A DNA stretch of 64,000 bases from Eledone cirrhosa (Eukaryota). The stretch's first letter is position 1, and each line of letters starts with the position of its first letter. The notes under the pieces are model-generated. The model made no database searches and was not told the origin of the DNA. It saw only the letters and a list, made by a program, of their open reading frames with translations. The stretch lies in assembly GCA_964016885.1 (NCBI GenBank), contig OZ024743.1, positions 146,692,001-146,756,000 on the forward strand. Direction: 5' to 3'. A program made the position numbers and the translations under genes. This document shows, one piece after another, positions 1,962-49,198 of the stretch.

Positions 1962-4399
1962 GTTTCTTTATTAGCCACAGGGACACAAAAGAAGGGGACA
2001 AATACAAAGGGGGAAGTTTACATACAATAAAAACGTGTAAAATATTATCACAAATGTAATTTAAAAATTAGTCGATTTCCCCAATAGGGGGAGACATTTC
2101 CCCCGAAAAAAAAATGTGCAACCCTCATCTCCAGGAGTACGAAAAGTTTGTACTCCTTTCCTCTCCTCTTTTTCCTCAACCTACAGGTTGATATAGAGAG
2201 AAGGCCCATTCACTCGGGCCATTCTCGCTACTTTCACCCACCTTTCATAAAACTTGCTGGGGTACAGCACCTCTCTCTCCATCCTGATGCTTCTTCCAAA
2301 GTGGAATTTGAAAAAAAGAATCAGTTGTTGGCCGGAGAGAAAGGTGTCTGACCTCAGCCCTTTCAACCTTGTCCACCATACAACCTCTTTCGCCATAGCT
2401 ATCACACAAAGGAAAACCGCCTCTCCTTCGTTTTTGAAGGAGGGTGGCGGTTTGATCATGACAATGGACTTGGTGGTCAACCGGATTGGTCTCACCCACG
2501 ACAATAGTCGTTCTACATAGCCCCACAGGTCGGTGACGCCCGGGCAGTGTATGAATGCGAGCGCGACGGTTTCTTCGTCTCGCACGCATCTCGGACAGAT
2601 CTTTTTTGCAGGGTCCCTGCCCGGGCGTCCATGTCTGTAGAGCTTGTCTCGAACTGGTAGAGCTCCTCGGTAGCACTGCCAGGCCAGGGACCTTTGAAAG
2701 TTGTCCATCGGTCCCGGGCGGAAGGTCCTACCGAACAGACTGGCCAGTTCGTCTTCCTCTACGCCCAGAGTTTCACCGAGAACGTCGTCGCACTTGCTGC
2801 GGATCAACCGTCTATAGAATGACGAAGTGGAGTCTCCACTGATCGCCGGGTCCGCCTTCCAGAGGGCTGTGAGCGCCTGAGCACATTCGATGTGCCAGTC
2901 GCCCATTTTCCTCGGTCTTTGCTTGACCCAGGACTGCAGCTCGGTCAGCGAGACGAGTCGTGGGAAGGCTCGCCTCACGAACGGGGCCCACACCGGTTGT
3001 CCGGTGAGGAATACGTAGAGATGCCGCAGCCTGAGCGCGTGTTTGCGCATCGTCAGCCACGGCATCCCCAGCCCTCCGTTGGAAGGGCGTTGGCAGCAGA
3101 TGGATCTTCTCACCAAAGGAGCCCGCCTCTTCCAAAGGAATTGGAAGAGCGTGCGCTCCATTTTGGCTGGACAAGGCACGACGGTCAAGCGGTAGTAGAT
3201 GGCGGACGCTATAAAAGTGTTCGCCACCTCCGCTCGACCTTTCAAGGATAGTTTGCACTCGGCCCACTTCTGGGTGAGTGCAAACACCTTGGCCGACACC
3301 TCGTTCCAGTTCTTCTCCACCTGGAGGTCCGGACCAAACCAGACCCCGAGCAGCTTTACTAGTCCTTCCGTCCAGCGTCTGACGACGCCATCGGAAAGCA
3401 TCGGTTTGCGTCTCCACGATCCGAGTTGCAAACCGATGGACTTGTCCCGGTTCAGCTTCGCTCCTGTGAACCTTTTGTATTCCTTCAGTAATGTGCCGAC
3501 TTCCTCGATTTGCGAGGCGCTCGACACCATTACTGCCTTGTCGTCGGCGTAGGCCGACGCCGCTTTCCGCAGTCCCGGTTCCAGAGGGATGCCCTGCAAT
3601 AGCTCCAACTTCCGTAGTAGTGGCTCGAGAGTCAATACGTACAGAAGGGAGGAGAGAGGGCATCCCTGTCGAATGGATCGCGTGATATGAAACGGCTCCG
3701 AGAGGTAGCCGTTCACCTTAACCCTTGAGCAGATGTTGCTGTTATGCATTGCAGGAATCCAGCCTCTGAACACGGATCTGAAGCCTGCCGCCTCGAGCAC
3801 CGCATCTAGGTAACGATGGTCACCCTATCGAAAGCCTTAGACTGATCCAAGTTGATCAGGGCCCCACCGAAGCTGGGTTTACACCCTACCCTCTCTATGA
3901 TGTATCGCATGAGGTGGAGGTTGTCGTGTATGGACCTGGTCGGGATTGCGCATGTCTGCGCTTCTTCCACCAGGTTTCCGACGACAAGCGCCAGCCTCTT
4001 TGCCAACACCTTGGCCAAAATCTGTAACTCTGTGTTTAGCAGAGTTAGGGGCTGGAAGTTGCCTATGTCATCCCCCTTATTCTCGTCCTTCCTGACTAGT
4101 GTAACTACGCCCCCGGTCACAGAACTGGGAATTCTCCCGTTCTGTTGCCAGTTGCAGTAGACCGCTTCCAGGATACCGGAGAACAAGTCCGGCATTGCTA
4201 CGTAAAATTCGTAGGGTAGACCGTCGAGACCTGGAGATTTGCGTTTGCCGTATTGGCTCAACGCGTCCCCTATCTCAGCGGCTGAAATCGGCTTTCGCAG
4301 AACTTTGCCTCGCTGTCCGAGAGTCGCGGTAGGCCATCGAGGTATGGACCGAAATCCATAGCCCCTCCCGGCGCGCCGCCCTGCCCGAACAGTTGAGCA
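1962..4399 (-). pseudogene. 5'-truncated Tx1-clade LINE (ORF2 RT, CCHC and 3' UTR), a diverged subfamily of the intact copies
   Basis: ORFs 3806-4567 and 2181-3800 give KSPGLDGLPYEFY, LDQSKAFDRV, IRQGCPLSSLLY, AYADD and CPRC..ET..C, collinear with ORF2 at 33969. There is a 1-nt deletion frameshift near 3820. The 3' end reads ccctgtggctaataaagaaac. Confidence 0.93.
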
Positions 4400-5720: not shown

Positions 5721-6027
5721 ACTTTGCCTTTCATCTTTACGGGGTCGATAAAATGAAGTACCAGTAATGCACTGGGTAATTGCTGGCCTTGTGCCTAAAG
5801 TAGAAACAATTATTTATACTTATTTATACTTGAGTACAAAGGGCGTTGGATTGGCAGTATCGGTAGAGGGTCGGACGCCATGCTTTGCAGCAAAGAGTTA
5901 CGGCCCTTTATGGTTTGAGTTCAAATCCCGCCGAGGTTAACTTTGCCTTTCATCCTTACGGGGTCGATAAAATAAAGTACCAGTAATGTGCTGGGTAATT
6001 GCTGGCCTTGTGCCTAAAGTAGAAACA
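5721..6027 (+). mobile_element. Two copies of the ATT-tailed tRNA-SINE: truncated (5721-5808) and full-length (5841-6027)
   Basis: A box tggcagtatcggtag, B box gagttcaaatccc, central gcctttcatccttacggggtcgataaaataaagtaccag, 3' end ccttgtgcctaaagtagaaaca. A 19-bp TSD ttatttatacttgagtaca lies at 5820-5838 and 6029-6047. Confidence 0.9.
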
Positions 6028-10072: not shown

Positions 10073-10280
10073 TGTTTCTGATTTAGGCACAAGGCCAACA
10101 ATTTTGGGGGAGAGAAAAGTTGATTAAATTGACCCCAGTGCATGATTGGTATTTTATTTTATCAACCCCGTACAGATGAGATGGTGATGTTAACTTCAGT
10201 GGGATTTGAACTCAGAACAAAAAGGGACATAACTAAACGATGTGAAGCATGTTGTCCGATGCTCTACCGATACAGCCAAA
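10073..10280 (-). mobile_element. Older copy of the ATT-tailed tRNA-SINE
   Basis: ttgtttctgatttaggcacaaggcc...gggatttgaactcag...gctctaccgatacagccaa, bounded by (AAT)n on both sides. Confidence 0.75.
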
Positions 10281-10300
10281 TGATAATAATAATAAAAATA

Positions 10301-11336
10301 ATTTCTTTATTGGACTTACATATAGGGGACAGTACAAAAAGACAGGGACATTAGGAGGTTACAATAAAATTGAGTAAAAAAAAATTAACAAAAACAATTA
10401 ACAATAAAATTATGACAATAAATATACCCGATAGGGAAGAGAACCATCCAGATGCAACTTAGGTACCCCACAAATCTTGAACCACCTGATACTTCAAGGG
10501 CACTTAGGAAGGGCACCCCTCTTATCATCAAATTAATCAGCCTGCAGGTACATGTGCAGAGTAGGCCCATTCACACAGGCCATTCATCACATTCATCCCC
10601 CTTTTAGCAAATGTACTGAGGGGCAACACTTCTCTCTCCACACTTACCTTTCTTTCCAAGTGAATCTTGAAAAAGTTGATGAGGGAATAACAGAAGAGAA
10701 AAGTGTCTGTCTTCAGTTCTTTCAACCCAGTCCACCACACAACCTCTTTCGCTACCATCACCGGACAGAGGAAAACTGCCTGCCCTTCCCAGCCAAAAGA
10801 TGGCCGGTCAATGTTCACTATGTGACAACAGTTGTTTGACATAAATCCACAAGTTAGTAATGCATGGATACTGGTGAGTGTATGCAGAATGCTTTTGTCA
10901 CTCTCTGTGCACCTCTCAGGCAGGTCCGTCTGACAGCACTTCCATGTCGGTAGAGTTTATCTTGAACTGGCTGTGTTCCTGGCAGCATTGCCAAGTGAGG
11001 GATTTCTGGAAGTTATCCATAGTCCCCAGCTTGAGAGTCTTCTGGAACAGACTGGTCAGTTCAACTTTGTCAACACCAGAGCCTCCCTGTGCATGTCATC
11101 ACACTTGCCCACCACTAATCCTCTATAGGACTTGAGAGCGGAGTTTCCACTGACCACATTGCCCACCTTGTAGAGGGCAGTGAGGGTCTGGCAACATTCC
11201 AAGTGCCCAGTCGCAGTCTCTTCTTGACCCAGGACTGCAGCTCAACCATGTCTGTTCACTGTTTAGTCAGAATATTTGGAGATATTGCAGACTCAGTGCA
11301 TGTTTGTGCATCATTAGCTATGGCATGCCTAGCCCA
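10301..11336 (-). pseudogene. Decayed 3' fragment of a Tx1-clade LINE
   Basis: ORF 10537-10842 (EGQAVFLCPVMVAKEVVWWTGLK..FFKIHLERKV) matches the ORF2 C-terminus. GLGMP*LMM lies near 11320. The 3' end ccaataaagaaat is followed by ATT repeats. Confidence 0.85.
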
Positions 11337-31621: not shown

Positions 31622-31678
31622 GAATGCCATGGTTGACGGAGGCTCGGCTCTGTAAGGTATAGTAATGTTTAACCGTTA

Positions 31679-31809
31679 AAACAATTGTAAATTGTTTAAA
31701 ACTTGAACCAAATTGTTGATAAAGACACCCTCCTCCTCGTGAGAGGGGTCTTTCTGTCCGTTATTTGGCCCTTCGGGGTTAAATAACCAGTTATTAGGGT
31801 TTTGTACCC
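31679..31809 (+). promoter_or_regulatory. Structured 5' UTR: four consecutive hairpins, including a C(UUCG)G tetraloop stem
   Basis: aaacaatt/aattgttt; aaagac..gtcttt (31721-31753); gttatttggccc-ttcg-gggttaaataac (31760-31787); gggt/accc. All are retained in copy 2. Confidence 0.55.
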
Positions 31810-31836
31810 CAAATTTCATTTTAAACAAAAAACAAC

Positions 31837-33933
31837 ATGGCTACGAAAAAGAAATTTCATAGGTCACTCCCACTCATTCCGTCTTCTTCTTCCTCAATCA
31901 TCACTACAGCAGAGAGAAGATTGTCTCTCTCCCTCCCTTCTTTAAATGTGTCTCTCTCCCTCCCTTCTCTTTCGCAAGTGACGAAAGAAAAGAAAAGTCT
32001 CGTGCAAAGCGTGCAAGGTTTCTCCACGACGACGACGACAGCGACGAAACAGGTGTGCGGGAAATACGAAAACCCAGTTCATTCGTCTGACGTCAGGAAT
32101 AATAGCAGTAGCAGCCGTAATAACAACAGCAACAGTGACAATGAAAACAACAGTAGCAGCCGCAACAGCATCACCAGCAGCATAAACAACAACAGCATTA
32201 GCAGCAGCAACACCAACAACAACCACAGCAACAGCGGCGGAGGCAGTAGTCGTAGTACCTGCAGCAACAACAAAAGTACCAGCAGCTCTGACGACAACAA
32301 CAAAAGCAGAGAAAAACCAATCTCATTTGCAGGTATTGCGAAAAACTTGGAAACAATCCTCATAACAAATGAGGAATTAGAGGAAGCGAAGAAGATGGTG
32401 ACAAAGAACGGACACCGAGCAATCTGCAAGGCAGCGGAAAAATTTTTCGAAACCCAAGAGCACTGTACGGTCGCGTACCGTACAGTAAGTACAAAATCCC
32501 GTAGGGTGGAAAGAGCCACAGAGGCCCAAATACAAAAAGCCTTGGGGTCTGTGTGGCAGCGGAAAACGCACATCACCCGAGGCAAAAAATATGCCACCGT
32601 AGACGTACTTTTTGCCACACCCCAGGAGGCAAAGGCCCAATCAGTAGTGACCCTAAGGAGCGAGGAAATGGTGTTGGTGCCCTCCTACTGCGGGCAAAAA
32701 ATTGTGAGGGTCAAACTGACCCACGTCCCCCCCGGAATGACCCCTTCTTGGCTGGCCGCGTCTGTCCTCGTCGGAATCGAGGACAAAACAACTGTACTGC
32801 AAGTACAGAAAAAAGTAAGAGAAGATTGGGTCGGCTCCTCCATTGAGATGCTAATCCAAACCAACCAGGAGTGCATCGAAGCTATCCCGGATGTGATAGA
32901 CTTCGATAACGGCACTCAACTGCCCATAAGTGTTGAGGGCAAACGCCCGAAATGCTTTCGCTGTGGATCAAAGACTCACCTCAGGGCCTTCTGCAACGAG
33001 AAGACCCTGAGAAAGGAGAAAACCCCCCTCCTTCCGAATCCGGCTCCACGGCTACCAGCAACAGGACAAGCGGCAACCAGGAACGATAGGTCCGTGGCAC
33101 CCATACCCACTCCACGGAAATCAAAAACAGCAGCAGCAGTGGAAATATTAACAACAACAACAGCAATACCAAATGCAGCTGCAACAGATACTCCAGTGCA
33201 AACATCACCAACAACAATAAGTGAAAGAGTGGAGCTGGTACCCCTCCCCGACCTCACAGAATCAGACATGGAGTGTGAGGTGGGAGAGGGATGGCAAAAG
33301 GTCGCAAGAAGGCACAAACGCAGAAGCAGCGCATCGTCGCCTTTGAAAAGGGAGGAAAGAAATGAGAAAAGGGTAAAGTCTACTGCAAAGAGACCCACAG
33401 CAGCAACACCACCAACACCATCACCACCCACACCAGCACCACCATCACCACCGGCGACAACCCCACCGCCAACAACACCTTCAACACCACCACCACAAGC
33501 ACCAACATCGCAAACACAACAACAAAACACACACACCCAGCAACAACGACAAGAAAATAGCAGAACCACACCCCACCCTCAGAAAAACAAATGCACGGCA
33601 ATAAACACACACAACAAGAAACTAATGACTTACATAATTGAACACACAGACATTTCACAACAGGACTACATAATACCAGCACCAATCAAAACGCCAACTA
33701 ACATAAGACTGCTAAAAATAGCACAGAAACAATACACAAACATTAAAACGAAATTCCCCAACGCAGTTGGTGATTTCAGGGACCTAGGAGGAACCATCAA
33801 TCGAAGAGTATATTCAGACATTCTCTTAGAAGAGCCGACGACCAGCCGAAGGGACGATTCAACGGTCCCTTCACCAGACGATCAAGTGAAAAGGGATGTA
33901 AAAACCATCCCCCCTCTACCAAAAGTACGGTAA
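31837..33933 (+). CDS. Tx1 ORF1 nucleic-acid-binding (Gag-like) protein, 698 aa
   Basis: CFRCGSKTHLRAFC (C-x2-C-x4-H-x4-C knuckle), basic WQKVARRHKRR motif, and N/S-rich and P/T-rich linkers. Confidence 0.92.
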   Translation: MATKKKFHRSLPLIPSSSSSIITTAERRLSLSLPSLNVSLSLPSLSQVTKEKKSLVQSVQGFSTTTTTATKQVCGKYENPVHSSDVRNNSSSSRNNNSNSDNENNSSSRNSITSSINNNSISSSNTNNNHSNSGGGSSRSTCSNNKSTSSSDDNNKSREKPISFAGIAKNLETILITNEELEEAKKMVTKNGHRAICKAAEKFFETQEHCTVAYRTVSTKSRRVERATEAQIQKALGSVWQRKTHITRGKKYATVDVLFATPQEAKAQSVVTLRSEEMVLVPSYCGQKIVRVKLTHVPPGMTPSWLAASVLVGIEDKTTVLQVQKKVREDWVGSSIEMLIQTNQECIEAIPDVIDFDNGTQLPISVEGKRPKCFRCGSKTHLRAFCNEKTLRKEKTPLLPNPAPRLPATGQAATRNDRSVAPIPTPRKSKTAAAVEILTTTTAIPNAAATDTPVQTSPTTISERVELVPLPDLTESDMECEVGEGWQKVARRHKRRSSASSPLKREERNEKRVKSTAKRPTAATPPTPSPPTPAPPSPPATTPPPTTPSTPPPQAPTSQTQQQNTHTQQQRQENSRTTPHPQKNKCTAINTHNKKLMTYIIEHTDISQQDYIIPAPIKTPTNIRLLKIAQKQYTNIKTKFPNAVGDFRDLGGTINRRVYSDILLEEPTTSRRDDSTVPSPDDQVKRDVKTIPPLPKVR

Positions 33934-33968
33934 GTGGTCTTTCCCATATTTTCCACTCTATTTTAAAC

Positions 33969-36900
33969 ATGACCTCACTCAGAATAGGCAGCATAAATGC
34001 GCGTGGCTTGGGGTCGTCATGGAAGCAGGGTCACCTGCTCAACGACCTCAGGTCACTAAACATAGATGTAGTGGCCATCAGCGAGACCAGAATCTCCGAA
34101 GCACGGGCCTCGGCACCGATCTTCGGCGGCTACGATGTGTACGCATCTCCCAGCTGTCCTGGATCGGGTGGAGGAGTTGCTGTGCTTTTTCGGAGAGGTT
34201 TGGATCTCGCCATACGGGCCATCTTCCTGGACCCAGAGGGTAAGCTGGTGGTGCTGGACGTGACCAGCGGAGACGGGCAAGCTTTCAGGCTAGTGGCCGT
34301 CTATGCCCCGACAGGAGCAGGGCGGCCTGATTTCTTCCGGCGTCTGGAGACCTTTCTTGGAACGTCCCGCTCTTTAGTGTTAGTGGGCGACTGGAACGGG
34401 ATCTTAGATGCACGCTGGGACTGTGTGGGATTAGCGGATAGGGGTGGAGGGTGCAAGAGCCTCACCAACCTGCTCAGGCGTTTTGAACTGTCTGACAGGT
34501 ACCGATTGGATTTCCCGAATGTACCAATGTGGACTTGGACAAACCGCATAGGGTCATCCAGATCATATCTAGATAGAGTATTTTGTAGGGAAATAGATAG
34601 GTCTAGCATAGGCTGTCCACAATTCAAGATAGTCAGCTACACGGACCACAAATTCGTGATCTGTGTGCTTGACTTAGATAGGCTTCATAGACGAGGACCC
34701 GGCTACTGGAAGCTAAACGCGTCCTTACCAGCGCGCAAGGCCTACAGAGACCGGATTAGCGAACTAGTTAAGCGGGCGTTGACGGGGGCCATCGTCAACA
34801 ACAAGTGGTGGTTTGCTCTGAAAAGAGCGATTAGAATAGAATCGATTAGGTTTAGTAAGGCTTTAGCAATAGAGAAAAATAGAGCAGAGGGAGAACTAGT
34901 TAGAAAATTAGACGAGGCGCTTAGCAAAGGCATTGCGACCGACGTGCTTGCGGCGAAATTGGCCCTTGACCAATTCTTCAATGCAAAGCACGAAGGCTGC
35001 GTTGTCAGAGCTAGGGTGCGTGCTCTCAGACACGAGGGGACGAAAGCCGTTCAATGGGCCCGAGTGGCGGAGGCGCGTCGTGGCAACAAAGCGACGATCC
35101 GGTCTTTGGTGGACCACGACGGGCGCATGCTACTCGATCCCGGGCAAATGTGTGAAGCTTTTCAGCGACACTTCGCTCAGCTGTTCGGGGGCAGCGGGGG
35201 GCCGGGTAGAGGGATGGACTTTAGTGTCTACCTCGACGGACTGCCGCGGCTCTCGGCCACTGAGGCGAAGTGTTGCGAAAAGCCGATAACAGCCGCTGAA
35301 GTAAGGGAGGCAATGACTGGCTGCACAAGGGGTAAATCGCCTGGTTTGGATGGTCTGCCCTATGAACTTTACGTACAGATGCCAGACTTGTTCGGAGGCC
35401 TCTTGGCGGACGTCTACTGCAACTGGCAACAGAACGGGAGAATTCCCAGTTCTGTGAGCCGAGGAGCGGTGGCACTGCTGAGAAAAGATCCTAACAAGGG
35501 GGATAACATAGAAAATTTCCGGCCCATAACTCTGCTAAACACAGAGTTTAAGATTTTGGCCAAGGTGCTAGCAAAGAGGTTGGCGCTTGTCGTTGGTGGT
35601 CTGGTGGGAGAGGCGCAGACATGCGCCATTCCCGACAGATCCATCCACGACAACCTCCACCTCATGCGATACATCGTAGAGAGGGTAGCTAGGGAACCTG
35701 GCACGGGTGGGTCCTTGATCAATTTAGATCAGTCGAAAGCTTTCGATAGGGTCGACCATCGTTACCTAGCGGCAGTCCTGAGGGCGGCTGGCTTTGGGCC
35801 CGTCTTCAGAGGCTGGATCTCTGCCATGCACAGCGACATCTGCTCTGTGGTGAGAGTGAACGGTCACCTGTCGGAACCGTTCAACATCATGCGCTCGGTC
35901 CGCCAAGGATGTCCCCTCTCGTCCCTCTTGTACGTATTGACGCTCGAGCCATTACTGCACAAACTGGAGACGTTGAGGGGAGTCCCGCGCGAACTAGGAT
36001 GCGGAAGATCCGTGTCAGCATATGCGGACGATGTCACCGTAGTGGTGTCGAACGCCAAACACATCGAGGCGATCGGCACTACACTAAGAGAATACGAAGC
36101 GGTGACAGGAGCAATGATCAACCAGGAAAAGTCAGTGGGCCTGCAGCTCGGCACCTGGAGAGGCAGGTCCATGCCGTCCAACAGCGTCGTCGGGCGCTGG
36201 ACGGACGGACCGGTTAAATTGCTAGGGGTCTGGTTCGGTCCGGACCTCCAGACGGACAAAAACTGGGACGAGGTGACGAGCAGGGTGGCTTCTCTCACCC
36301 AGAAATGGGCGGAGAGGAAGCTATCCCTGAAAGGTCGAGCGGAGGTGGCTAACGCGTACATCGCGTCTGTCATCTGCTACCGCCTAACCGTCGTACCTTG
36401 TCCTAAGCCTCGCCTGACTGCGCTGGAGCGTTTGCTCTTTCGCTTTTTGTGGAAGGGACGTGCTCCGATGGTCAGGCGGTCCATCTGTTGTCAACACCCG
36501 CTACGTGGAGGGCTGGGCATGCCGTGGCTGATGATGCGCAGGCACGCGCTCAGGCTACGACATCTCCACCTCTTCCTCGACGGTGATCAGGTGTGGTCGC
36601 CGTTTGCTAGACGCGTTTTTCCCCAGCTCGTTTCCTTGACGGAGCTGCAGTCCTGGGTCAAGCGAAGACCGAGAGGGAGCGCCTGGAGACTGGAATGTCT
36701 TCAGGCGCTCACAGCCCTCGACCAATCGGGCAATGTGATCGGTGGAAACTCCACCTCGGCGTTCTATAGAGGATTAGTGGAGGGGAAGAGCGACGACGTA
36801 CTTGGGGAAACTCTAGGCGTCGACGAAAATCAACTAGCCAATCTCTTCGGAAGAACCTTCGGGCCAGGGCCTATGGACAACTTCCAGAAATCTCTGGCCT

Positions 36901-37388
36901 GGCAGTGCTACCGAGGAGCCTTGCCAGTTCGGGATAAACTCTACAGGCATGGAGGTGCCGTCAGCCGGGCATGTCCGAGATGCGCGCAGGGCGACGAAAC
37001 CGTCCTGCACGCACTCGTCCAGTGTCCGAAAATTGCTGACTTGTGGGTTTATGTCGAACACCTGCTGTCGCGTTTAGGACGGATCCAGCTATCATCTGAG
37101 TCTATCGTGAGGATTGCCCCGCCCTCCTCCTTTAGCCGGGAAGGGCAGGCAGTTTTTATCTGTCTGGTGGCCATGGCGAAAGAGATAGTATGGTGGACAC
37201 GTTTGAAAGGGCTGAAGACGAGCACTTACCTCTTCGGTGATGCTCTGATTGACTTTTTCAAATTTCATTTGAAAAGGAAAATCAGAGTAGAGAAGGAAGT
37301 GCTCTCTTCCCAGCATTTTGTTGAAAGATGGGTGAGAGAAGCAAGAATGGCCCGAGTGAATGGGCCGACTCTGAGTATATATCTGTAA
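33969..37388 (+). CDS. Tx1 ORF2: APE endonuclease, reverse transcriptase and CCHC zinc finger, 1139 aa
   Basis: SINARGL, ISETR, VYAP, GDWN, SYLDRV and TDH (APE). KSPGLDG, RPITLLNTEFKIL, DQSKAFDRV, RQGCPLS and YADD (RT). CPRC..ETVLH..C. Confidence 0.97.
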   Translation: MTSLRIGSINARGLGSSWKQGHLLNDLRSLNIDVVAISETRISEARASAPIFGGYDVYASPSCPGSGGGVAVLFRRGLDLAIRAIFLDPEGKLVVLDVTSGDGQAFRLVAVYAPTGAGRPDFFRRLETFLGTSRSLVLVGDWNGILDARWDCVGLADRGGGCKSLTNLLRRFELSDRYRLDFPNVPMWTWTNRIGSSRSYLDRVFCREIDRSSIGCPQFKIVSYTDHKFVICVLDLDRLHRRGPGYWKLNASLPARKAYRDRISELVKRALTGAIVNNKWWFALKRAIRIESIRFSKALAIEKNRAEGELVRKLDEALSKGIATDVLAAKLALDQFFNAKHEGCVVRARVRALRHEGTKAVQWARVAEARRGNKATIRSLVDHDGRMLLDPGQMCEAFQRHFAQLFGGSGGPGRGMDFSVYLDGLPRLSATEAKCCEKPITAAEVREAMTGCTRGKSPGLDGLPYELYVQMPDLFGGLLADVYCNWQQNGRIPSSVSRGAVALLRKDPNKGDNIENFRPITLLNTEFKILAKVLAKRLALVVGGLVGEAQTCAIPDRSIHDNLHLMRYIVERVAREPGTGGSLINLDQSKAFDRVDHRYLAAVLRAAGFGPVFRGWISAMHSDICSVVRVNGHLSEPFNIMRSVRQGCPLSSLLYVLTLEPLLHKLETLRGVPRELGCGRSVSAYADDVTVVVSNAKHIEAIGTTLREYEAVTGAMINQEKSVGLQLGTWRGRSMPSNSVVGRWTDGPVKLLGVWFGPDLQTDKNWDEVTSRVASLTQKWAERKLSLKGRAEVANAYIASVICYRLTVVPCPKPRLTALERLLFRFLWKGRAPMVRRSICCQHPLRGGLGMPWLMMRRHALRLRHLHLFLDGDQVWSPFARRVFPQLVSLTELQSWVKRRPRGSAWRLECLQALTALDQSGNVIGGNSTSAFYRGLVEGKSDDVLGETLGVDENQLANLFGRTFGPGPMDNFQKSLAWQCYRGALPVRDKLYRHGGAVSRACPRCAQGDETVLHALVQCPKIADLWVYVEHLLSRLGRIQLSSESIVRIAPPSSFSREGQAVFICLVAMAKEIVWWTRLKGLKTSTYLFGDALIDFFKFHLKRKIRVEKEVLSSQHFVERWVREARMARVNGPTLSIYL

Positions 37389-37649
37389 ACTAAAGGTGGA
37401 AAACTGGGAGAGGGCACTTGCCTTGGTGGTCAGGGTCATTGTGGCTTTTTACTGGGCTTTCTCCACAAATGTCCCTCCGAAGTCTCCCCCCTATTGGGGA
37501 ATTTTTCATTGTTATTTTCATTGTTATTTTTGTTACATCCTCTATTTTTGTTTTTTTTACACGCAGAAATGCCCATTTGTACCGTCCTGCATTGTCCTGC
37601 ACTGTCCTTAATGTCTACTTTATGTAAACCCTTGTGGTTAATAAAGAAA

Positions 37650-37684
<35 letters not shown>

Positions 37685-37897
37685 GAATGCCATGGTTGAC
37701 GGAGGCTCGGCTCTGTAAGGTATAGTAATTTTTAACCGTTAAAACAATTGTAAATTGTTTAAAACTTGAACCAAATTGTTGATAAAGACACCCTCCTCCT
37801 CGTGAGAGGGGTCTTTCTGTCCGTTATTTGGCCCTTCGGGGTTAAATAACCAGTTATTGGGGTTTTGTACCCAAAATTTCATTTTAAACAAAAAAAC

Positions 37898-39994
37898 ATG
37901 GCTACCAAAAAGAAATTTCATACGTCACTCCCACTCATTCCGTCTTCTTCTTCCTCAATCATCACTACAGCAGAGAGAAGATTGTCTCTCTCCCTCCCTT
38001 CTTTAAATGTGTCTCTCTCCCTCCCTTCTCTTTCGCAAGTGACGAAAGAAAAGAAAAGTCTCGTGCAAAGCGTGCAAGGTTTCTCCACGACGACGACGAC
38101 AGCGACGAAACAGGTGTGCGGGAAATACGAAAACCCAGTTCATTCGTCTGACGTCAGGAATAATAGCAGTAGCAGCCGTAATAACAACAGCAACAGTGAC
38201 AATGAAAACAACAGTAGCAGCCGCAACAGCATCACCAGCAGCATAAACAACAACAGCATTAGCAGCAGCAACACCAACAACAACCACAGCAACAGCGGCG
38301 GAGGCAGTAGTCGTAGTACCTGCAGCAACAACAAAAGTACCAGCAGCTCTGACGACAACAACAACAGCAGAGAAAAACCAATCTCATTTGCAGGTATTGC
38401 GAAAAATTTGGAAACAATCCTCATAACAAATGAGGAATTAGAGGAAGCGAAGAAGATGGTGACAAAGAACGGACACCGAGCAATCTGCAAGGCAGCGAAA
38501 AATTTTTTCGAAACCCAAGAGCACTGTACGGTCACGTACCGTACAGTAAGTACAAAATCCCGTAGGGTGGAAAGAGCCACAGAGGCCCAAATACAAAAAG
38601 CCTTGGGGTCTGTGTGGCAGCGGAAAACGCACATCACCCGAGGCAAAAAATATGCCACCGTAGACGTACTTTTTGCCACACCCCAGGAGGCAAAGGCCCA
38701 ATCAGTAGTGACCCTAAGGAGCGAGGAAATGGTGTTGGTGCCCTCCTACTGTGGGCAAAAAATTGTGAGGGTCAAACTGACCCACGTCCCCCCCGGAATG
38801 ACCCCTTCTTGGCTGGCCGCGTCTGTCCTCGTCGGAATCGAGGACAAAACAACTGTACTGCAAGTACAGAAAAAAGTAAGAGAAGATTGGGTCGGCTCCT
38901 CCATTGAGATGCTAATCCAAACCAACCAGGAGTGCATCGAAGCTATCCCGGATGTGATAGACTTCGATAACGGCACTCAACTGCCCATAAGTGTTGAGGG
39001 CAAACGCCCGAAATGCTTTCGCTGTGGATCGAAGACTCACCTCAGGGCCTTCTGCAACGAGAAGACCCTGAGAAAGGAGAAAACCCCCCTCCTTCCGAAT
39101 CCGGCTCCACGGCTACCAGCAACAGGACAAGCGGCAACCAGGAACGATAGGCCCGTGGCACCCATACCCACTCCACGGAAATCAAAAACAGCAGCAGCAG
39201 TGGAAATACTAACAACAACAACAGCAATACCAAATGCAGCTGCAACAGAGACTCCAGTGCAAACATCACCAACAACAACAAGTGAAAGAGTGGAGTTGGT
39301 ACCCCTCCCCGACCTCACAGAATCAGACATGGAGTGTGAGGTGGGAGAGAGATGGCAAAAGGTCGTAAGAAGGCACAAACGCAGAAGCAGCGCATCGTCG
39401 CCTTTGAAAAGTGAGGAAAGAAATGAGAAAAGGGTAAAGTCTACTGCAAAGAGACCCACAGCAGCAACAACACCAACACCATCACCACCCACACTAGCGC
39501 CACCATCACCACCGGCGACAACCCCACCGCCAACAACACCTTCAACACCACCACCACAAGCACCAACATCGCAAACACAACAACAAAACACACACACCCA
39601 GCAACAACGACAAGAAAATAGCAGAACCACACCCCACCCCCAGAAAAACAAATGCACGGCAATAAACACACACAACAAGAAACTAATGACTTACATAATT
39701 GAACACACAGACATTTCACAACAGGACTACATAATACCAGCACCAATCAAAACGCCAACTAACATAAGACTGCTAAAAATAGCACAGAAACAATACACAA
39801 ATATTAAAACGAAATTCCCCAACGCAGTTGGTGATTTCAGGGACCTAGGAGGAACCATCAATCGAAGAGTATACTCAGACATTCTCTTAGAAGAGCCGAC
39901 GACCAGCCGAAGGGACGATTCAACGGTCCCTTCACCAGACGATCAAGTGAAAAGGGATGTAAAAACCATCCCTCCTCTACCAAAAGTACGGTAA
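37898..39994 (+). CDS. Tx1 ORF1, copy 2 (ATG at 37898, 698 aa)
   Basis: Collinear with copy 1 ORF1, about 13 aa substitutions, no stops. Confidence 0.92.
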   Translation: MATKKKFHTSLPLIPSSSSSIITTAERRLSLSLPSLNVSLSLPSLSQVTKEKKSLVQSVQGFSTTTTTATKQVCGKYENPVHSSDVRNNSSSSRNNNSNSDNENNSSSRNSITSSINNNSISSSNTNNNHSNSGGGSSRSTCSNNKSTSSSDDNNNSREKPISFAGIAKNLETILITNEELEEAKKMVTKNGHRAICKAAKNFFETQEHCTVTYRTVSTKSRRVERATEAQIQKALGSVWQRKTHITRGKKYATVDVLFATPQEAKAQSVVTLRSEEMVLVPSYCGQKIVRVKLTHVPPGMTPSWLAASVLVGIEDKTTVLQVQKKVREDWVGSSIEMLIQTNQECIEAIPDVIDFDNGTQLPISVEGKRPKCFRCGSKTHLRAFCNEKTLRKEKTPLLPNPAPRLPATGQAATRNDRPVAPIPTPRKSKTAAAVEILTTTTAIPNAAATETPVQTSPTTTSERVELVPLPDLTESDMECEVGERWQKVVRRHKRRSSASSPLKSEERNEKRVKSTAKRPTAATTPTPSPPTLAPPSPPATTPPPTTPSTPPPQAPTSQTQQQNTHTQQQRQENSRTTPHPQKNKCTAINTHNKKLMTYIIEHTDISQQDYIIPAPIKTPTNIRLLKIAQKQYTNIKTKFPNAVGDFRDLGGTINRRVYSDILLEEPTTSRRDDSTVPSPDDQVKRDVKTIPPLPKVR

Positions 39995-40029
39995 GTGGTC
40001 TTTCCCATCTTTTCCACTCTATTTTAAAC

Positions 40030-43000
40030 ATGACCTCACTCAGAATAGGCAGCATAAATGCGCGTGGCTTGGGGTCGTCATGGAAGCAGGGTCACCTGCT
40101 CAACGACCTCAGGTCACTAAACATAGATGTAGTGGCCATCAGCGAGACCAGAATCTCCGAAGCACGGGCCTTCGCACCGATCTTCGGCGGCTTCGATGTG
40201 TACGCATCTCCCAGCCGTCCTGGATCCGGTGGAGGAGTTGCTGTGCTTTTTCGGAGAGGTTTGGATCTCGCCATACGGGCCATCTTCCTGGACCCAGAGG
40301 GTAAGCTGGTGGTGCTGGACGTGACCAGCGGAGACGGGCAAGCTTTCAGGCTAGTGGCCGTCTATGCCCCGACAGGAGCAGGGCGGCCTGATTTCTTCCG
40401 GCGTCTGGAGACCTTTCTTGGAACGTCCCGCTCTTTAGTGTTAGTGGGCGACTGGAACGGGATCTTAGATGCACGCTGGGACTGTGTGGGATTAGCGGAT
40501 AGGGGTGGAGGGTGCAAGAGCCTCACCAACCTGCTCAGGCGTTTTGAACTGTCTGACAGGTACCGATTGGATTTCCCGAATGTGCCAATGTGGACTTGGA
40601 CAAACCGCATAGGGTCATCCAGATCATATCTAGATAGAGTATTTTGTAGGGAAATAGATAGGTCTAGCATAGGCTGTCCACAATTCAAGATAGTCAGCTA
40701 CACGGACCACAAATTCGTGATCTGTGTGCTTGACTTAGATAGGCTTCATAGACGAGGACCCGGCTACTGGAAGCTAAACGCGTCCTTACCAGCGCGCAAG
40801 GCCTACAGAGACCGGATTAGCGAACTAGTTAAGCGGGCGTTGACGGGGGCCATCGTCAACAACAAGTGGTGGTTTGCTCTGAAAGGAGCGATTAGAATAG
40901 AATCGATTAGGTTTAGTAAGGCTTTAGCAATAGAGAAAAATAGAGCAGAGGGAGAACTAGTTAGAAAATTAGACGAGGCGCTTAGCAAAGGCATTGCGAC
41001 CGACGTGCTTGCGGCGAAATTGGCCCTTGACCAATTCTTCAATGCAAAGCACGAAGGCTGCGTTGTCAGAGCTAGGGTGCGTGCTCTCAGACACGAGGGG
41101 ACGAAAGCCGTTCAATGGGCCCGAGTGGCGGAGGCGCGTCGTGGCAACAAAGCCACGATCCGGTCTTTGGTGGACCACGACGGGCGCATGCTACTCGATC
41201 CCGGGCAAATGTGTGAAGCTTTTCAGCGACACTTCGCTCAGCTGTTCGGGGGCAGCGGGGGGCCGGGTAGAGGGATGGACTTTAGTGTCTACCTCGACGG
41301 ACTGCCGCGGCTCTCGGCCACTGAGGCGAAGTGTTGCGAAAAGCCGATAACAGCCGCTGAAGTACGGGAGGCAATGACTGGCTGCACAAGGGGTAAATCG
41401 CCTGGTTTGGATGGTCTGCCCTATGAACTTTACGTACAGATGCCAGACTTGTTCGGAGGCCTCTTGGCGGACGTCTACTGCAACTGGCAACAGAACGGGA
41501 GAATTCCCAGTTCTGTGAGCCGAGGAGCGGTGGCACTGCTGAGAAAGGATCCGAACAAGGGGGATAACATAGACAATTTCCGGCCCATAACTCTGCTAAA
41601 CACAGAGTTTAAGATTTTGGCCAAGGTGCTAGCAAAGAGGTTGGCGCTTGTCGTTGGTGGTCTGGTGGGAGAGGCGCAGACATGCGCCATTCCCGACAGA
41701 TCCATCCACGACAACCTCCACCTCATGCGATACATCGTAGAGAGGGTAGCTAGGGAACCTGGCACGGGTGGGTCCTTGATCAATTTAGATCAGTCGAAAG
41801 CTTTCGATAGGGTCGACCATCGTTACCTAGCGGCAGTCCTGAGGGCGGCTGGCTTTGGGCCCGTCTTCAGAGGCTGGGTCGCTGCCATGCACAGCGACAT
41901 CTGCTCTGTGGTGAGAGTGAACGGTCACCTGTCGGAACCGTTCAACATCATGCGCTCGGTCCGCCAAGGATGTCCCCTCTCGTCCCTCTTGTACGTATTG
42001 ACTCTCGAGCCATTACTGCACAAACTGGAGACGTTGAGGGGAGTCCCGCGCGAACTAGGATGCGGAAGATCCGTGTCAGCATATGCGGACGATGTCACCG
42101 TAGTGGTGTCGAACGCCAAACACATCGAGGCGATCGGCACTACACTAAGAGAATACGAAGCGGTGACAGGAGCAATGATCAACCAGGAAAAGTCAGTGGG
42201 CCTGCAGCTCGGCACCTGGAGAGGCAGGTCCATGCCGTCCAACAGCGTCGTCGGGCGCTGGACGGACGGACCGGTTAAATTGCTAGGGGTCTGGTTCGGT
42301 CCGGACCTCCAGACGGACAAAAACTGGGACGAGGTGACGAGCAGGGTGGCTTCTCTCACCCAGAAATGGGCGGAGAGGAAGCTATCCCTGAAAGGTCGAG
42401 CGGAGGTGGCTAACGCGTACATCGCGTCTGTCATCTGCTACCGCCTAACCGTCGTACCTTGTCCTAAGCCTCGCCTGACTGCGCTGGAGCGTTTGCTCTT
42501 TCGCTTTTTGTGGAAGGGACGTGCTCCGATGGTCAGGCGGTCCATCTGTTGTCAACACCCGCTACGTGGAGGGCTGGGCATGCCGTGGCTGATGATGCGC
42601 AGGCACGCGCTCAGGCTACGACATCTCCACCTCTTCCTCGACGGTGATCAGGTGTGGTCGCCGTTTGCTAGACGCGTTTTTCCCCAGCTCGTTTCCTTGA
42701 CGGAGCTGCAGTCCTGGGTCAAGCGAAGACCGAGAGGGAGCGCCTGGAGACTGGAATGTCTTCAGGCGCTCACAGCCCTCGACCAATCGGGCAATGTGAT
42801 CGGTGGAAACTCCACCTCGGCGTTCTATAGAGGATTAGTGGAGGGGAAGAGCGACGACGTACTTGGGGAAACTCTAGGCGTCGACGAAAATCAACTAGCC
42901 AATCTCTTCGGAAGAACTTTCGGGCCGGGGCCTATGGACAACTTCCAGAAATCTCTGGCCTGGCAGTGCTACCGAGGAGCCTTGCCAGTTCGGGATAAAC

Positions 43001-43449
43001 TCTACAGGCATGGAGGTGCCGTCAGCCGGGCATGTCCGAGATGCGCGCAGGGCGACGAAACCGTCCTGCACGCACTCGTCCAGTGTCCGAAAATTGCTGA
43101 CTTGTGGGTTTATGTCGAACACCTGCTGTCGCGTTTAGGACGGATCCAGCTATCATCTGAGTCTATCGTGAGGATTTCCCCGCCCTCCTCCTTTAGCCGG
43201 GAAGGGCAGGCAGTTTTTAACTGTCTGGTGGCCATGGCGAAAGAGATAGTATGGTGGACACGTTTGAAAGGGCTGAAGACGAGCACTTACCTCTTCGGTG
43301 ATGCTCTGATTGACTTTTTCAAATTTCATTTGAAAAGGAAAATCAGAGTAGAGAAGGAAGTGCTCTCTTCCCAGCATTTTGTTGAAAGATGGGTGAGAGA
43401 AGCAAGAATGGCCCGAGTGAATGGGCCGACTCTGAGTATATATCTGTAA
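40030..43449 (+). CDS. Tx1 ORF2, copy 2, 1139 aa
   Basis: Collinear with copy 1 ORF2, about 9 aa substitutions, catalytic motifs intact. Confidence 0.97.
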   Translation: MTSLRIGSINARGLGSSWKQGHLLNDLRSLNIDVVAISETRISEARAFAPIFGGFDVYASPSRPGSGGGVAVLFRRGLDLAIRAIFLDPEGKLVVLDVTSGDGQAFRLVAVYAPTGAGRPDFFRRLETFLGTSRSLVLVGDWNGILDARWDCVGLADRGGGCKSLTNLLRRFELSDRYRLDFPNVPMWTWTNRIGSSRSYLDRVFCREIDRSSIGCPQFKIVSYTDHKFVICVLDLDRLHRRGPGYWKLNASLPARKAYRDRISELVKRALTGAIVNNKWWFALKGAIRIESIRFSKALAIEKNRAEGELVRKLDEALSKGIATDVLAAKLALDQFFNAKHEGCVVRARVRALRHEGTKAVQWARVAEARRGNKATIRSLVDHDGRMLLDPGQMCEAFQRHFAQLFGGSGGPGRGMDFSVYLDGLPRLSATEAKCCEKPITAAEVREAMTGCTRGKSPGLDGLPYELYVQMPDLFGGLLADVYCNWQQNGRIPSSVSRGAVALLRKDPNKGDNIDNFRPITLLNTEFKILAKVLAKRLALVVGGLVGEAQTCAIPDRSIHDNLHLMRYIVERVAREPGTGGSLINLDQSKAFDRVDHRYLAAVLRAAGFGPVFRGWVAAMHSDICSVVRVNGHLSEPFNIMRSVRQGCPLSSLLYVLTLEPLLHKLETLRGVPRELGCGRSVSAYADDVTVVVSNAKHIEAIGTTLREYEAVTGAMINQEKSVGLQLGTWRGRSMPSNSVVGRWTDGPVKLLGVWFGPDLQTDKNWDEVTSRVASLTQKWAERKLSLKGRAEVANAYIASVICYRLTVVPCPKPRLTALERLLFRFLWKGRAPMVRRSICCQHPLRGGLGMPWLMMRRHALRLRHLHLFLDGDQVWSPFARRVFPQLVSLTELQSWVKRRPRGSAWRLECLQALTALDQSGNVIGGNSTSAFYRGLVEGKSDDVLGETLGVDENQLANLFGRTFGPGPMDNFQKSLAWQCYRGALPVRDKLYRHGGAVSRACPRCAQGDETVLHALVQCPKIADLWVYVEHLLSRLGRIQLSSESIVRISPPSSFSREGQAVFNCLVAMAKEIVWWTRLKGLKTSTYLFGDALIDFFKFHLKRKIRVEKEVLSSQHFVERWVREARMARVNGPTLSIYL

Positions 43450-43711
43450 ACTAAAGGTGGAAAACTGGGAGAGGGCACTTGCCTTGGTGGTCAGGGTCAT
43501 TGTGGCTTTTTACTGGGCTTTCTCCACAAATGTCCCTCCGAAGTCTCCCCCCTATTGGGGAATTTTTCATTGTTATTTTCATTGTTATTTTTGTTACATC
43601 CTCTGTTTTTGTTTTTTTTTACACGCAGAAATGCCCATTTGTACCGTCCTGCATTGTCCTGCACTGTCCTTAATGTCTACTTTATGTAAACCCTTGTGGT
43701 TAATAAAGAAA

Positions 43712-43746
<35 letters not shown>

Positions 43747-45905: not shown

Positions 45906-45909
45906 AATT

Positions 45910-47182
45910 GGAAGCCTCGAGTAGGCTTTTAAAGAAGTTCCCAACAGAAACCTCACCAACCATTGCTGAATTGTAAAGGGCAGTGAGCACCTGGCAACAT
46001 TCCAGATACCAGGTGCCCAGACTTGGTCTTCGTTTGACCAATGATTGCAGCTCAATCAAAGAGACGAGTTGCGGAAAGACTTATCTCACAAATGGTGACC
46101 ACACCTGTTCACCATTTAGGGATATCTGGAAATGTTGTAACCTCAGTGCATGTTTGCACATCATCAGTTATGGCATGCCCAGCCATCTGCATAGAAAGTG
46201 CTGGCAGCAGATGGACAACCTAACCAAGGGATCCTGCCCCTTCTACAAGAAGTTGAAAAGCAGGTGCTCCAATTTGGTGAGGCATGCACATGAATGGGAG
46301 CAAGGCATGACGGTCAGATGGTAATAAATGATGGATGTGATGCACGCATTTGCCACTCCTGTCCGACCTTAGCTTCCTCTTTGCACATTATTGGGTTCCG
46401 AAACAGTTCCGAAAGATGGCCATTAACTTTGACCACCAAGCAGATGTCGCTCTACATTGCAACAATCCAGCCCCTGAAGATGAGACCAAAGCCAGCTGCC
46501 TTGAGGACAGTCTTCAGGTATCAATGGTTGACCCTATCAAAAACTTTCGACTGATCCAAATTAATCAGAAACCCAACAAAGTCAGGTTTACACTATATCC
46601 TCTCTATGATGTATCTAGATAAATTTACTCGCACAAAGTATGGCATCTGTGCGGTCAGTTGTTGTGGTAGTGTGTGTTTGTGTTTGCTTGGTTTTGTTGC
46701 TGGTGGTAGCGGTGGTAATGTTGGCAGTGTTTGAGTTGCTGTGGATGTATCTGTATTTGTTATGTGTGTATTCACTGCATTTTCTGTTCTGTGTGTGTGA
46801 TGCCAGATGTTTCTGTCTTGTGTTCTTTTGTAGCTCCCCCTCATCTTCACTTCGAGATAAAGAAGTGCCAGTGTCTGTGGAATCTGTTTCTGATGTTAGT
46901 GGGTGTTTGTTTGTTAGTGTTGGTGGGGGTGGTACTACTATTGACTTTTGAATCACAGTCATGTGACATCTGGCTCAAGAGGGACGTATCCCCTCTATTT
47001 TTTAAAAGCTTGTAGGCATGAAACTAAAAAACAAAATTCTAATATTATGAGGTCTCGCTTCTTGAGGGCAAAATACCTATGTACCCTTGAAACTAAAATA
47101 ATTTAACATATAATGGTTTAAACAACTTAAAACAGCACACTTACTGGAGCTCACAATTATACATTGTCATATGTCAGTTACC
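45910..47182 (-). pseudogene. Decayed, internally deleted Tx1-family element (5' end, ORF1 piece, ORF2 pieces)
   Basis: Minus strand reads LINLDQSKVFDRVNH, AAGFG..FRGWI, LEHLLF, ICCQH, GMP*LMM and VFPQLVSL. The 5' end ggtaactgac abuts ATT repeats at 47183. Confidence 0.8.
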
Positions 47183-48362
47183 AATAATAATAATAATTGT
47201 TTCTACTTTAGGTACAAGGCCAGCAATTTAAAGGGTGGGGAAAGTCGATTAAAATGACCCCAGTGGATTTTACCGACCCCATAAGGATGAAAGGCAAAGT
47301 TAACCTCGGCAGGATTTGAACTCAGAAGATAAAGGGCCGTAACTCTATGCTGCAAAGTATATTGTCTGACGCTCTACCAATACTGTTAATCCACCGCCTT
47401 AATAATTGTTTCTACTTTTGGCACAAGGCCAGCAATTACACAGTACATTACTGGTACTTTATTTTATCAACCCCGTGAGGATGAAAGGCAAAGTTAACCT
47501 CAGCGAGATTTGAACTCAGATCATAAAGGGGCGTAACTCTATGCTACAAAGCATGGCGTCTGACTCTCTACCGATACTGCCAATCATAATAATAATAATT
47601 GTTTCTACTTTAGGCACAAGGCCAGCAATTACCCAGTACATTACTGGTACTTTATTTTATCGACCCCATGAGGATGAAAGACAAAGTTAACCTCAGCGAG
47701 ATTTGAACTCAGATCATAAAGGGGCGTAACTCTATGCTACAAAGCATGGCGTCTGACTCTCTACCGATACTGCCAATCATAATAATAATAATTGTTTCTA
47801 CTTTAGGTACAAGGCCAGCAATTCACCAGTGCATTACTGGTACTTTATTTTATCGACCCCGTAAGGATGAAAGGCAAAGTTAACCTCGGCGAGATTTGAA
47901 CTCAGACCGTAAAGGGACGTAACTTTGCTGGAAAGCATGGCATCCGACTCTCTACCAATACTGCCAATTCACCGCCCCTAATAATAATTGTTTCTACGTT
48001 TGGCACAAGGCCAGCAATTAGCCAGTGCATTACTGGTACTTTATTTTATCGACCCCGTAAGGATGAAAGGCAAAGTTAACCTCGGCGAGATTTGAACTCA
48101 GACCGTAAAGGGACGTAACTTTGCTGGAAAGCATGGCATCTGACTCTCTACCAATACTGCCAATTCACCGCCCCTAATAATAATTGTTTCTACGTTTGGC
48201 ACAAGGCCAGCAATTAGCCAGTGCATTACTGGTACTTTATTTTATCGACCCCGTAAGGATGAAAGGCAAAGTTAACCTTGGCGGGATTTGAACTCAGAAT
48301 GGCAAGGGCCGTAACTCTATGCGTCAAAGCATGGCGTCCGACCCTCTACCGATACTGCCAAT
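47183..48362 (-). mobile_element. Head-to-tail array of six ATT-tailed tRNA-SINE copies
   Basis: Six units of about 185-205 bp, each beginning (plus strand) aataattgtttctac(t/g)tt..gg(c/t)acaaggccagcaatt and separated by AAT repeats. Confidence 0.93.
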
Positions 48363-48399: not shown

Positions 48400-48465
48400 T
48401 TTCCTCTGTATTTTGCCTTTGTATTGTTCCCAACATTTTTAGTCCTTGTGGCCAATAAAATAAAT
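48400..48465 (+). mobile_element. Possible short Tx1-type 3' UTR stub
   Basis: cctttgtattgttccc...gtccttgtggccaataaa resembles the 3' ends of the Tx1 copies. Confidence 0.45.
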
Positions 48466-49198
48466 AATTTTTACTACAATTATTTTCATCATTGTTTTTA
48501 TTTTCATCACCATTATTATTATCTTTATATTTATATAGTTTTTTTTTATCAACTTCAATATTGTATTTTTTCATTACAATTTTTTTAAAGAAAGAAAAGC
48601 TTTGGCAAGTAACGTGCATTTGCCACCCAACATCACTGCATGTGACTTGAACAATGAATGCAAGCAACTCTTGCAACATATGTTAGATTTTATTGCAATC
48701 TAGATTATGTATGTGTACAGTGATTGATCACATGGAACATTCTTGGTGTGAGGGGCAATTTGCAGGAGTAGAAAGAGTTATGACATGTTTGCATACCTGA
48801 TATGGATTGTTGAACACCTGCTGAGAAGAAACATTTTTGTTTACTTGTTCATTTAGGTTGAATATATCATCATCCTCATTATATCTGCCTCATCCCTCTT
48901 ATCATCATCATCATCGTTATCATCTTCCTCCTCCTTACCACCACCACAACCATCACCACCACTTCCACTACCATTATCATCAACATCATCGTCATCATTG
49001 TCATCATTGTTGACACCATCATCATTGCCATGTCACCGATTGCCATGTTAACGATGATGATAATTACAAGGTCATATATTCCTTGCAAAGTATTAATGCT
49101 ACATATCATTTCGGTTCATTTTGCTCCTTATGAAAATGGGGGAAGTTGTAGCTGCATGCTTATCTCTAATATATACATATACAAATACATACATGTAA

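Follow-up and report, generated by a model that had tools for sequence, protein, structure and literature searches.

A tRNA-like SINE of Eledone cirrhosa is probably copied in trans by the ORF2 protein (ORF2p) of an ATT-targeting lineage of Tx1-type LINEs, by way of a predicted hairpin with a CUUGU loop in the SINE tail. That the partner is a Tx1 element of one mode or the other, whether or not it reads the hairpin, appears highly probable. The tail of the SINE resembles that of Tx1 and both elements use the same ATT landing sites, and the SINE therefore likely borrows the Tx1 copying enzyme. The initial annotation had proposed that the SINE uses the ATT-specific Tx1 ORF2p; a partner of the Tx1 lineage is favoured by the tail, the covarying stem, the ATTATT-led target duplications and the common polarity, but the intact LINE family seen at this locus was too narrow a choice. 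The window referred to below is the whole stretch of 64,000 nucleotides that was analysed (contig OZ024743.1, positions 146,692,001 to 146,756,000).

Tx1-type LINEs and SINE copies in the window

The Tx1-type elements of the window and their parts were located as follows.

31622..37651, plus strand: intact Tx1-type LINE copy 1, between (ATT)n runs
31837..33933, plus strand: ORF1 of copy 1, 698 aa, with a C-X2-C-X4-H-X4-C knuckle in the translation
33969..37388, plus strand: ORF2 of copy 1, 1139 aa, with APE endonuclease, RT and zf-RVT
37627..37651, plus strand: Tx1 3' end; a hairpin AACC-CTTGT-GGTT is predicted at 37627-37639, ahead of AATAAA, and 16 nt separate its loop from the junction
37685..43713, plus strand: intact Tx1-type LINE copy 2, 99.2% identical to copy 1 and linked to it via (ATT)11
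1961..4398, minus strand: older, 5'-truncated Tx1 copy, ORF2 67-74% identical in amino acids, tail matching the SINE at 17/22, 3' flank of AT type
10280..11335, minus strand: degraded Tx1 3' fragment with an ATT-rich junction to a SINE head
45907..46628, minus strand: pieces of Tx1 ORF2, at a distance of 555 bp on the downstream side of the SINE array
48414..48484, plus strand: degraded Tx1 3' tail adjoining the head of the SINE array

Both intact copies have ORF1 and ORF2 open and carry ATT runs at their flanks. ORF1 of copy 1 gave no Pfam hit, and the solved structure nearest to ORF2 was human L1 ORF2p (E = 2.5e-52). Based on the two ORFs and on the domains and closest structure of ORF2, the LINE is a member of the L1 group of non-LTR retrotransposons. 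The label Tx1-type was given on the grounds of this affinity, of the zinc knuckle in ORF1, which is a feature of the Tx1 clade, and of microsatellite targeting, rather than by comparison with a named Tx1 family. The older copy that ends at 1961 is not followed by ATT: the next letters are ATATATAAG, an AT-type flank, and by its tail this copy clusters with Tx1 subfamilies located in (ATCT)n or (AT)n.

Several other features of the region were recorded. The 5' UTR of Tx1 contains a long predicted hairpin (31760-31787, plus strand; 12-bp stem, UUCG loop, z = -2.3). At 44510-45900 (plus strand), past an ATT run, lies another Tx1-like 5' end with an ORF1-like frame (31% to ORF1), facing the minus-strand ORF2 fragments at 45907-46628. 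A Dong/R4-type LINE has left a 3' fragment at 43747-44468 (minus strand), in the same repeat run as Tx1 copy 2 and tail-to-tail with it; (ATT)n runs border the fragment at 43714-43746 and 44470-44510. Two LINE clades here use one microsatellite from opposite strands. Near-identical Tx1 sequence (36600-37651) was also present in sequencing runs coded as 16 organisms (X1-X20), and all eight runs that were examined carry the SINE too; only X6 and X9 contained thousands of contigs and five runs contained 17-65, which resembles trace DNA or shallow data, and we make no claim of horizontal transfer.

The SINE copies of the window are listed below, with the array units numbered from the head of the array.

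5840..6027, plus strand: single SINE copy lying behind a truncated one, with a target duplication of 19-20 nt (5820-5838 and 6028-6047)
10073..10279, minus strand: long-subfamily SINE immediately beyond the 3' end of a Tx1 fragment
48185..48362, minus strand: unit 1, short subfamily, 5' end short of about 10 nt
47989..48172, minus strand: unit 2, 184 nt, A-box-like sequence from position 10 and B-box-like sequence at about 74, 97% identical to unit 3
47793..47976, minus strand: unit 3, 97% identical to unit 2
47600..47778, minus strand: unit 4, 97% identical to unit 5, source of the 22-nt tail used in the comparisons
47407..47585, minus strand: unit 5, 97% identical to unit 4
47198..47398, minus strand: unit 6, long subfamily, 78-81% identical to the other units, then (ATT)5 to 47183

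The six minus-strand copies at 47198-48362 are arranged head-to-tail and spaced by (ATT)2-5, in agreement with the initial description of the SINE as forming ATT-separated arrays. Apart from the pairs 2/3 and 4/5, the short units are 89-91% identical to each other. Given these identities (97% within the pairs versus 89-91% and 78-81%), the array most likely originated from about four insertions followed by local duplication. The SINE had further been described as sitting directly beside Tx1 in two places. In the first, this was confirmed, with the SINE at 10073-10279 abutting a co-oriented Tx1 fragment at about 10280-11335. At 47183 the case is weaker: homology to ORF2 begins only at 46628, and the stretch at 47117-47190, which is 77% like a stretch 3' of an ATT run in another locus (L183), may be where a further Tx1-like subfamily has its 5' end.

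The SINE is a non-coding, dispersed element of 185-205 nt with target duplications and 5' truncations, and its abundance was extrapolated to about 2.6e5 copies from 69 tails in 0.8 Mb of sampled genome (80 evenly spaced 10-kb pieces). An A-box-like sequence was found in the head of 30/38 full-length copies and a B-box-like sequence in 36/38, and the head aligned to tRNA-like loci of the same genome, reaching z = 5.0 at best, with some 20 additional nt separating the boxes. These boxes and the head alignment suggest that the SINE is tRNA-derived, and it is called tRNA-like here. No parent tRNA was recognised among 14 tRNA-like loci, and neither ARAGORN nor Rfam called the head as a tRNA; a weak Rfam match to TP53TG1_1 (E = 0.25-4.9) was under threshold and was rejected as an identity. 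The head aligned best to a dispersed tRNA-like family (loci L367 and L369-L377) whose members are near-identical and are variously called with anticodons for Ala, Val, Thr or Asp. Elsewhere in the window, ARAGORN called a tRNA-Ser(AGA) at 51251-51322 (minus strand), which is short for a serine tRNA and is possibly a pseudogene or a repeat. As for the CORE, V, Deu, Meta and Ceph domains, short motifs of the SINE body were absent from the supplements of PMC4824008 and PMC4758252, bar one file each, and gapped alignments can hide such motifs.

Similarity of the tails and the predicted hairpin

The 3' ends quoted in the initial annotation for the SINE, the intact LINE and the copy at 1961 are all present in the sequence. 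Compared without gaps, the last 22 nt of the SINE match the intact LINE at 15/22 positions and the Tx1 copy ending at 1961 at 17/22, as had been reported for the latter. Among 400,000 shuffles of the Tx1 tail, a score of at least 15 was reached in 21 (5e-5) and a score of 17 in one (2.5e-6). The 14 Tx1 ends found in the samples fall into two target groups, six in ATT and eight in ATCT or AT-type flanks, and at the best shift the SINE tail matched the ATCT group at 12-17/22 and the ATT group at 11-15/22. Given that the 17/22 match is to a Tx1 of the ATCT/AT group, the tail marks the Tx1 lineage and the target alone points to the ATT branch. The stretch common to SINE and Tx1 is short, about 22-25 nt, and BLAST of the whole SINE against Tx1 3' UTRs gave a best E of 0.1-0.7.

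The possibility that another LINE family matches the SINE tail better was examined with 3' ends from an RTE family, two Dong/R4 families, several CR1/L2-like families, one Penelope and one RNase-H-bearing family. They were gathered from the 0.8-Mb samples and the best hits of two family searches, a survey that a low-copy clade could escape. The LINE types encountered, RTE, Dong-R4, CR1, L1-Tx1 and Penelope, agree with those tabulated for O. vulgaris in PMC13282606. Eight of these tails reached only 8-11/22, close to the background mean of about 8/22 for a score taken as the best of seven shifts, and a few further 3' ends were compared by eye only and left unscored. Tx1 was thus the best match among the LINE types sampled. 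In these comparisons the similarity of the SINE tail to Tx1 lies above chance and above every sampled rival LINE type, but it is short.

Both tails are predicted to form a 4-bp stem with the shared loop CTTGT, with 16 nt from loop to junction in either case. Some of the mismatches between SINE and Tx1 lie within the predicted stem and pairing is retained. The stem arms are AACC/GGTT in the young Tx1 and TGGC/GCCA or TGGC/GCCT in the SINE, and other Tx1 subfamilies have AGCC/GGCC, GGCC/GGCT, TGCC/GGCA or CGCC/GGCT. When 14 tails were tabulated, 50/56 cells paired and three of the four pairs varied on both sides, which was equalled in 0/500 shuffles, and controls with the stem slid along the alignment scored much lower. 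The rows were hand-picked and the structure was derived from the same rows, so these values are biased by row choice and shared ancestry, and the change between G-C in the SINE and C-G in Tx1 is a single event counted four times. Thermodynamic folding gave the hairpin as the minimum-energy fold in 2/6 windows, with 3-4 pairs and non-significant z-scores, and in 17/48 SINE stems the outer pair is a T-T mismatch. The hairpin is retained in both SINE subfamilies. Sister Tx1 subfamilies in (ATCT)n or AT-type flanks (L099, L119, L126, L128, L152 and the copy at 1961) retain it as well, with loops CTAGT, CTGGT or CCTGT.

Searched for in 0.8 Mb, the hairpin-plus-spacer motif occurred at 60 sites: in 48 a SINE body was attached, one was a truncated SINE and 11 were Tx1 ends, with no third family; the motif was built from both SINE and Tx1 and the count is partly circular. 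A terminal hairpin of this type was absent from 14 inspected of 72 metagenome-contig relatives (23-48% identity) and none was seen among viral contigs. A DNA search with a 91-nt tail of another Tx1 subfamily gave no match although the query was drawn from the same genome, and empty DNA searches therefore weigh little.

Insertion sites and the choice of partner

The prediction that SINE insertion sites prefer ATT held, with a target consensus of AYY^ATTATT. In the unbiased 0.8-Mb samples, 52/67 SINE 3' flanks start with ATT and 38/67 with ATTATT, compared with ATTATT at 0.11% of positions. Target duplications were scored in 104 full-length SINEs (all own-genome loci up to L220), requiring at least 10 nt with at least three letters that do not belong to ATT repeats. 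A qualifying duplication was present in 41/104, against 1.7 in shuffled pairings, and 63/104 were without one. The median length was 17 nt, and positions +1 to +6 were A, T, T, A, T and T in 37, 40, 38, 37, 40 and 32 of the 41, respectively. A looser test on the unbiased set gave 25/66 against a shuffled mean of 7, a figure inflated by ATT repeats. Three of the duplications begin with G on both sides, which indicates that the ATT is derived from the target. Just upstream of SINE heads ATTAT was found in 80/104 copies (18/28 in the unbiased set), with a background of 7%. About 12 of the 41 duplications lie behind the tail of another element, and the same duplication recurs between array units (L046, L049, L058, L060), which points to repeated insertion at a rebuilt site.

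ATT follows 30/30 3' ends of the young Tx1, 11 of these 30 being in tandem, and precedes 43/43 of its 5' ends. At 92 junctions of ATT-group Tx1, the next element was a SINE in 13 cases, co-oriented in 13/13, and a Dong element in 13 cases, in opposite orientation in 13/13. Only about five Tx1 duplications were readable from 46 ends tried, as most are unmeasurable inside repeats. In composites of a SINE and a short Tx1 (L204-L206, L217) no shared outer duplication was seen, and template jumps were rejected as their origin.

Which Tx1 subfamily would drive the SINE was judged from junctions and ages. Uninterrupted ATT units at the junction have a median of 15.5 in the young intact Tx1, 2 in the SINE (four or more in 4/67) and 2 in the older ATT subfamily (8/30). 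Copies of the short SINE subfamily are 3-21% from their majority sequence (median about 6%), and the older ATT Tx1 subfamily is about 89% identical pairwise, whereas at least 40 3' UTRs of the young intact family are identical. Since the ages and short junctions of the SINE resemble the older subfamily and not the young family, which is stricter and younger than most SINEs, it was probably older and less strict ATT Tx1 subfamilies that produced most SINE copies. The older subfamily as sampled has a 6-nt loop variant with a weaker match to the SINE tail (11-14/22), and its readable duplications are few, of 17-19 nt and one of about 24. By target, polarity and age, the SINE and the older Tx1 subfamilies appear to have the same insertion signature and overlapping activity, with the Tx1 duplication length coming from about five copies.

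None of the 66 listed SINE 3' flanks begins with an ATCT repeat, although the ATCT-group Tx1 carries the same hairpin. This lack could arise if the primer pairs with AUU in the RNA, or if tails are discriminated more finely. It is also what a priming filter would give, together with the ATT-type flanks and an equally good tail match in the ATCT group, if Tx1 ORF2p copied the SINE without reading the hairpin, the tail being a relic of an old capture and pairing between AUU and the target, or loose binding, being what matters. We regard this alternative as unlikely. The predicted hairpin is weak and the SINEU/Tx1-Mar system offers a Tx1 partner without a common tail (in the available text of PMC4494074), but the loop and spacing are conserved among Tx1 subfamilies that have dissimilar upstream UTRs and an identity of about 55-70% between their ORF2 ends, the stem pairs change together, and the hairpin is present in both SINE subfamilies.

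A partner other than Tx1, either the ATT-tailed CR1-group LINE, the AAT-targeting Dong/R4 or a low-copy clade outside the sampled 0.8 Mb and the best hits of two family searches, is doubtful to a greater degree. The sense strand of the CR1-group LINE (L319, L324; 729 candidates) does end in (ATT)n, and Dong inserts in the same microsatellites. However, the CR1-group tail matches the SINE at only 8-10/22 and has a different hairpin, and truncated copies of this LINE had a duplication starting at the junction in 0/24 and ATTAT upstream in 2/24. The ATT of the CR1-group LINE is thus best read as a copied tail and that of the SINE as target. Dong ends in AAT on the sense strand, in a polarity opposite to that of Tx1 and the SINE, and its tail scored 9-11/22. 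The remaining ends differ as well: (ATG)n in RTE, (CAA)n in the RNase-H-bearing LINE, and TTCAAAG, ATTGA or GAAAT repeats in other CR1/L2-like families.

Some properties of these other LINEs were noted in passing. The CR1-group LINE (L324:300-3131, L319, L335-L364) has a predicted hairpin of its own and is without long target duplications, and it is a likely origin of new ATT runs that were later used by Tx1, Dong and the SINE (L319, L342, L348, L350, L360). RTE-type 3' ends are located at 9393, 24823, 28383, 52492, 57461 and 63938 on the plus strand and at 30965 and 51544 on the minus strand of the window, mostly followed by (ATG)n; 52 such ends occur in the 0.8-Mb sample, and a part of them may derive from a further short element with an RTE tail. 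The RNase-H-bearing LINE, which we take to be I/Nimb-like, is low-copy (L305, L306, L325-L334) and ends in (CAA)n.

It is very improbable, and in view of the duplications and covariation largely refuted, that the tail likeness is a coincidence in AT-rich ends and that SINE tails merely give Tx1 its ATT landing pads: Tx1 does insert in SINE-flanking ATT runs (L005, L071, L088, L194, L204-L206, L217) and short A-rich matches are readily over-read, but the shuffle probability is 5e-5 or less, SINEs have inserted just 3' of Tx1 with duplications of their own (L184, L220), and the SINE target logo fits even away from Tx1.

Proposed mechanism, known systems and significance

Target-primed reverse transcription is the general scheme behind the priming steps of the mechanism we favour, in which a Tx1 ORF2p reads the tail hairpin. 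The SINE RNA would be made by Pol III, and the Tx1 ORF2p would bind its tail hairpin, by analogy with zebrafish L2 elements. The endonuclease of ORF2p would then nick the strand opposite AYY^ATTATT, and the freed AATAAT-3' end would serve at the tail junction as the primer for reverse transcription, where it perhaps pairs with AUUAUU that the RNA has brought along from its site of origin. The target duplication would arise when the other strand is nicked some 17 nt away. Because an element end followed by ATT is a rebuilt target, later SINE and Tx1 copies would stack in the same orientation. The steps from binding onward are modelled on experiments with L2 elements (PMC4176376). As a broader reading, we suggest tentatively, and at slightly less than an even chance, that an animal L1/Tx1 lineage has stringent recognition via a 25-nt tail, made up of the CUUGU-loop hairpin and the 16-nt spacer, by which ORF2p selects its template; this tail was kept through switches of the endonuclease between ATT and ATCT targets and was captured by a SINE that rides only the ATT branch and rose to roughly a quarter of a million copies.

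Stringent pairs of the L2 clade include eel UnaL2/UnaSINE and zebrafish ZfL2-1 and ZfL2-2 (PMC4176376, PMC3747384). As far as the available text of these sources goes, they resemble the present pair in having a 3' stem-loop with a conserved loop and a swappable stem, followed by short repeats, and in that the SINE carries the LINE tail; they differ in clade and in having been tested experimentally, whereas the Tx1/SINE pair is proposed from sequence, has a much shorter stem and has a repeat that appears to derive from the target. Tail sharing within the L1 clade is described for maize ZmSINE2/3 and sorghum SINEs with LINE1-1_ZM and for Chlamydomonas SINEX-3_CR with L1-1_CR, with about 50-80 shared nt, poly(A) ends and, in the available text, no report of microsatellite targeting (PMC3472496, PMC3747384). 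The present pair, in contrast, concerns an animal Tx1-type lineage, shares about 22-25 nt, and its DNA copies are without poly(A). The crocodilian SINEU/Tx1-Mar system is alike in that Tx1 was assigned by target preference and overlapping age, and in its tandem insertions; it is unlike in having snRNA heads, a Mariner target and, according to the text available, no LINE with the 3' end of SINEU-1 (PMC4494074), whereas the present SINE has a tRNA-like head, an ATT target and a tail in common with Tx1. Specificity for microsatellites is also known from Tx1-clade LINEs of fish and crocodilians, among them Kibi with (TC)n, Koshi with (TTC)n and crocodilian elements with (TTCC)n or (TTTC)n, and the available text names no SINE partner for them (PMC4494074); the microsatellites occupied in the present genome are (ATT)n and (ATCT)n. 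Bivalve SINE/LINE pairs are reported to share 35-61 nt (PMC11481361). No Tx1 partner for mollusc SINEs or octopus repeats was named in the available parts of PMC4824008, PMC4758252, PMC11481361, PMC8967140, PMC13282606, PMC5786205 and PMC3531059.

Outside Repbase, the sequences of SINEBase and the papers of Ohshima and Okada (1994) and Akasaki (2010), the literature searches listed no tail-sharing Tx1/SINE pair. Ohshima and Okada reportedly described the octopus tRNA-derived SINE families OK, OR1 and OR2 in 1994, and OR1 and OR2 are said to be cited as CORE-SINEs. The present SINE may be one of these three, and it may already have a family name and a database record of the pairing. Stringent pairs of a SINE and a LINE have been described before, and the Tx1 pair described here remains a variant of a textbook mechanism.

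Animal L1-group enzymes are thought to select RNA by poly(A). L1-group SINEs that share tails with their LINEs are known from plants and a green alga (PMC3472496). If true, a Tx1/SINE pair with a common tail would inform the question, left open by Ohshima, of whether stringent recognition came first in the L1 group, and would provide a minimal testable system for shifts of this group between stem-loop and poly(A) recognition. The intact, near-identical young ORF2 copies make a mobilisation assay practical, and the tail would amount to a short RNA handle that directs cargo into ATT repeats. In O. vulgaris, 893/900 recently active SINE families are unclassified, according to the available text of PMC13282606. 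The pairing would name a likely driver for a major repeat class in octopod-type genomes and would account for the piling up of SINE, Tx1 and Dong elements in ATT runs.
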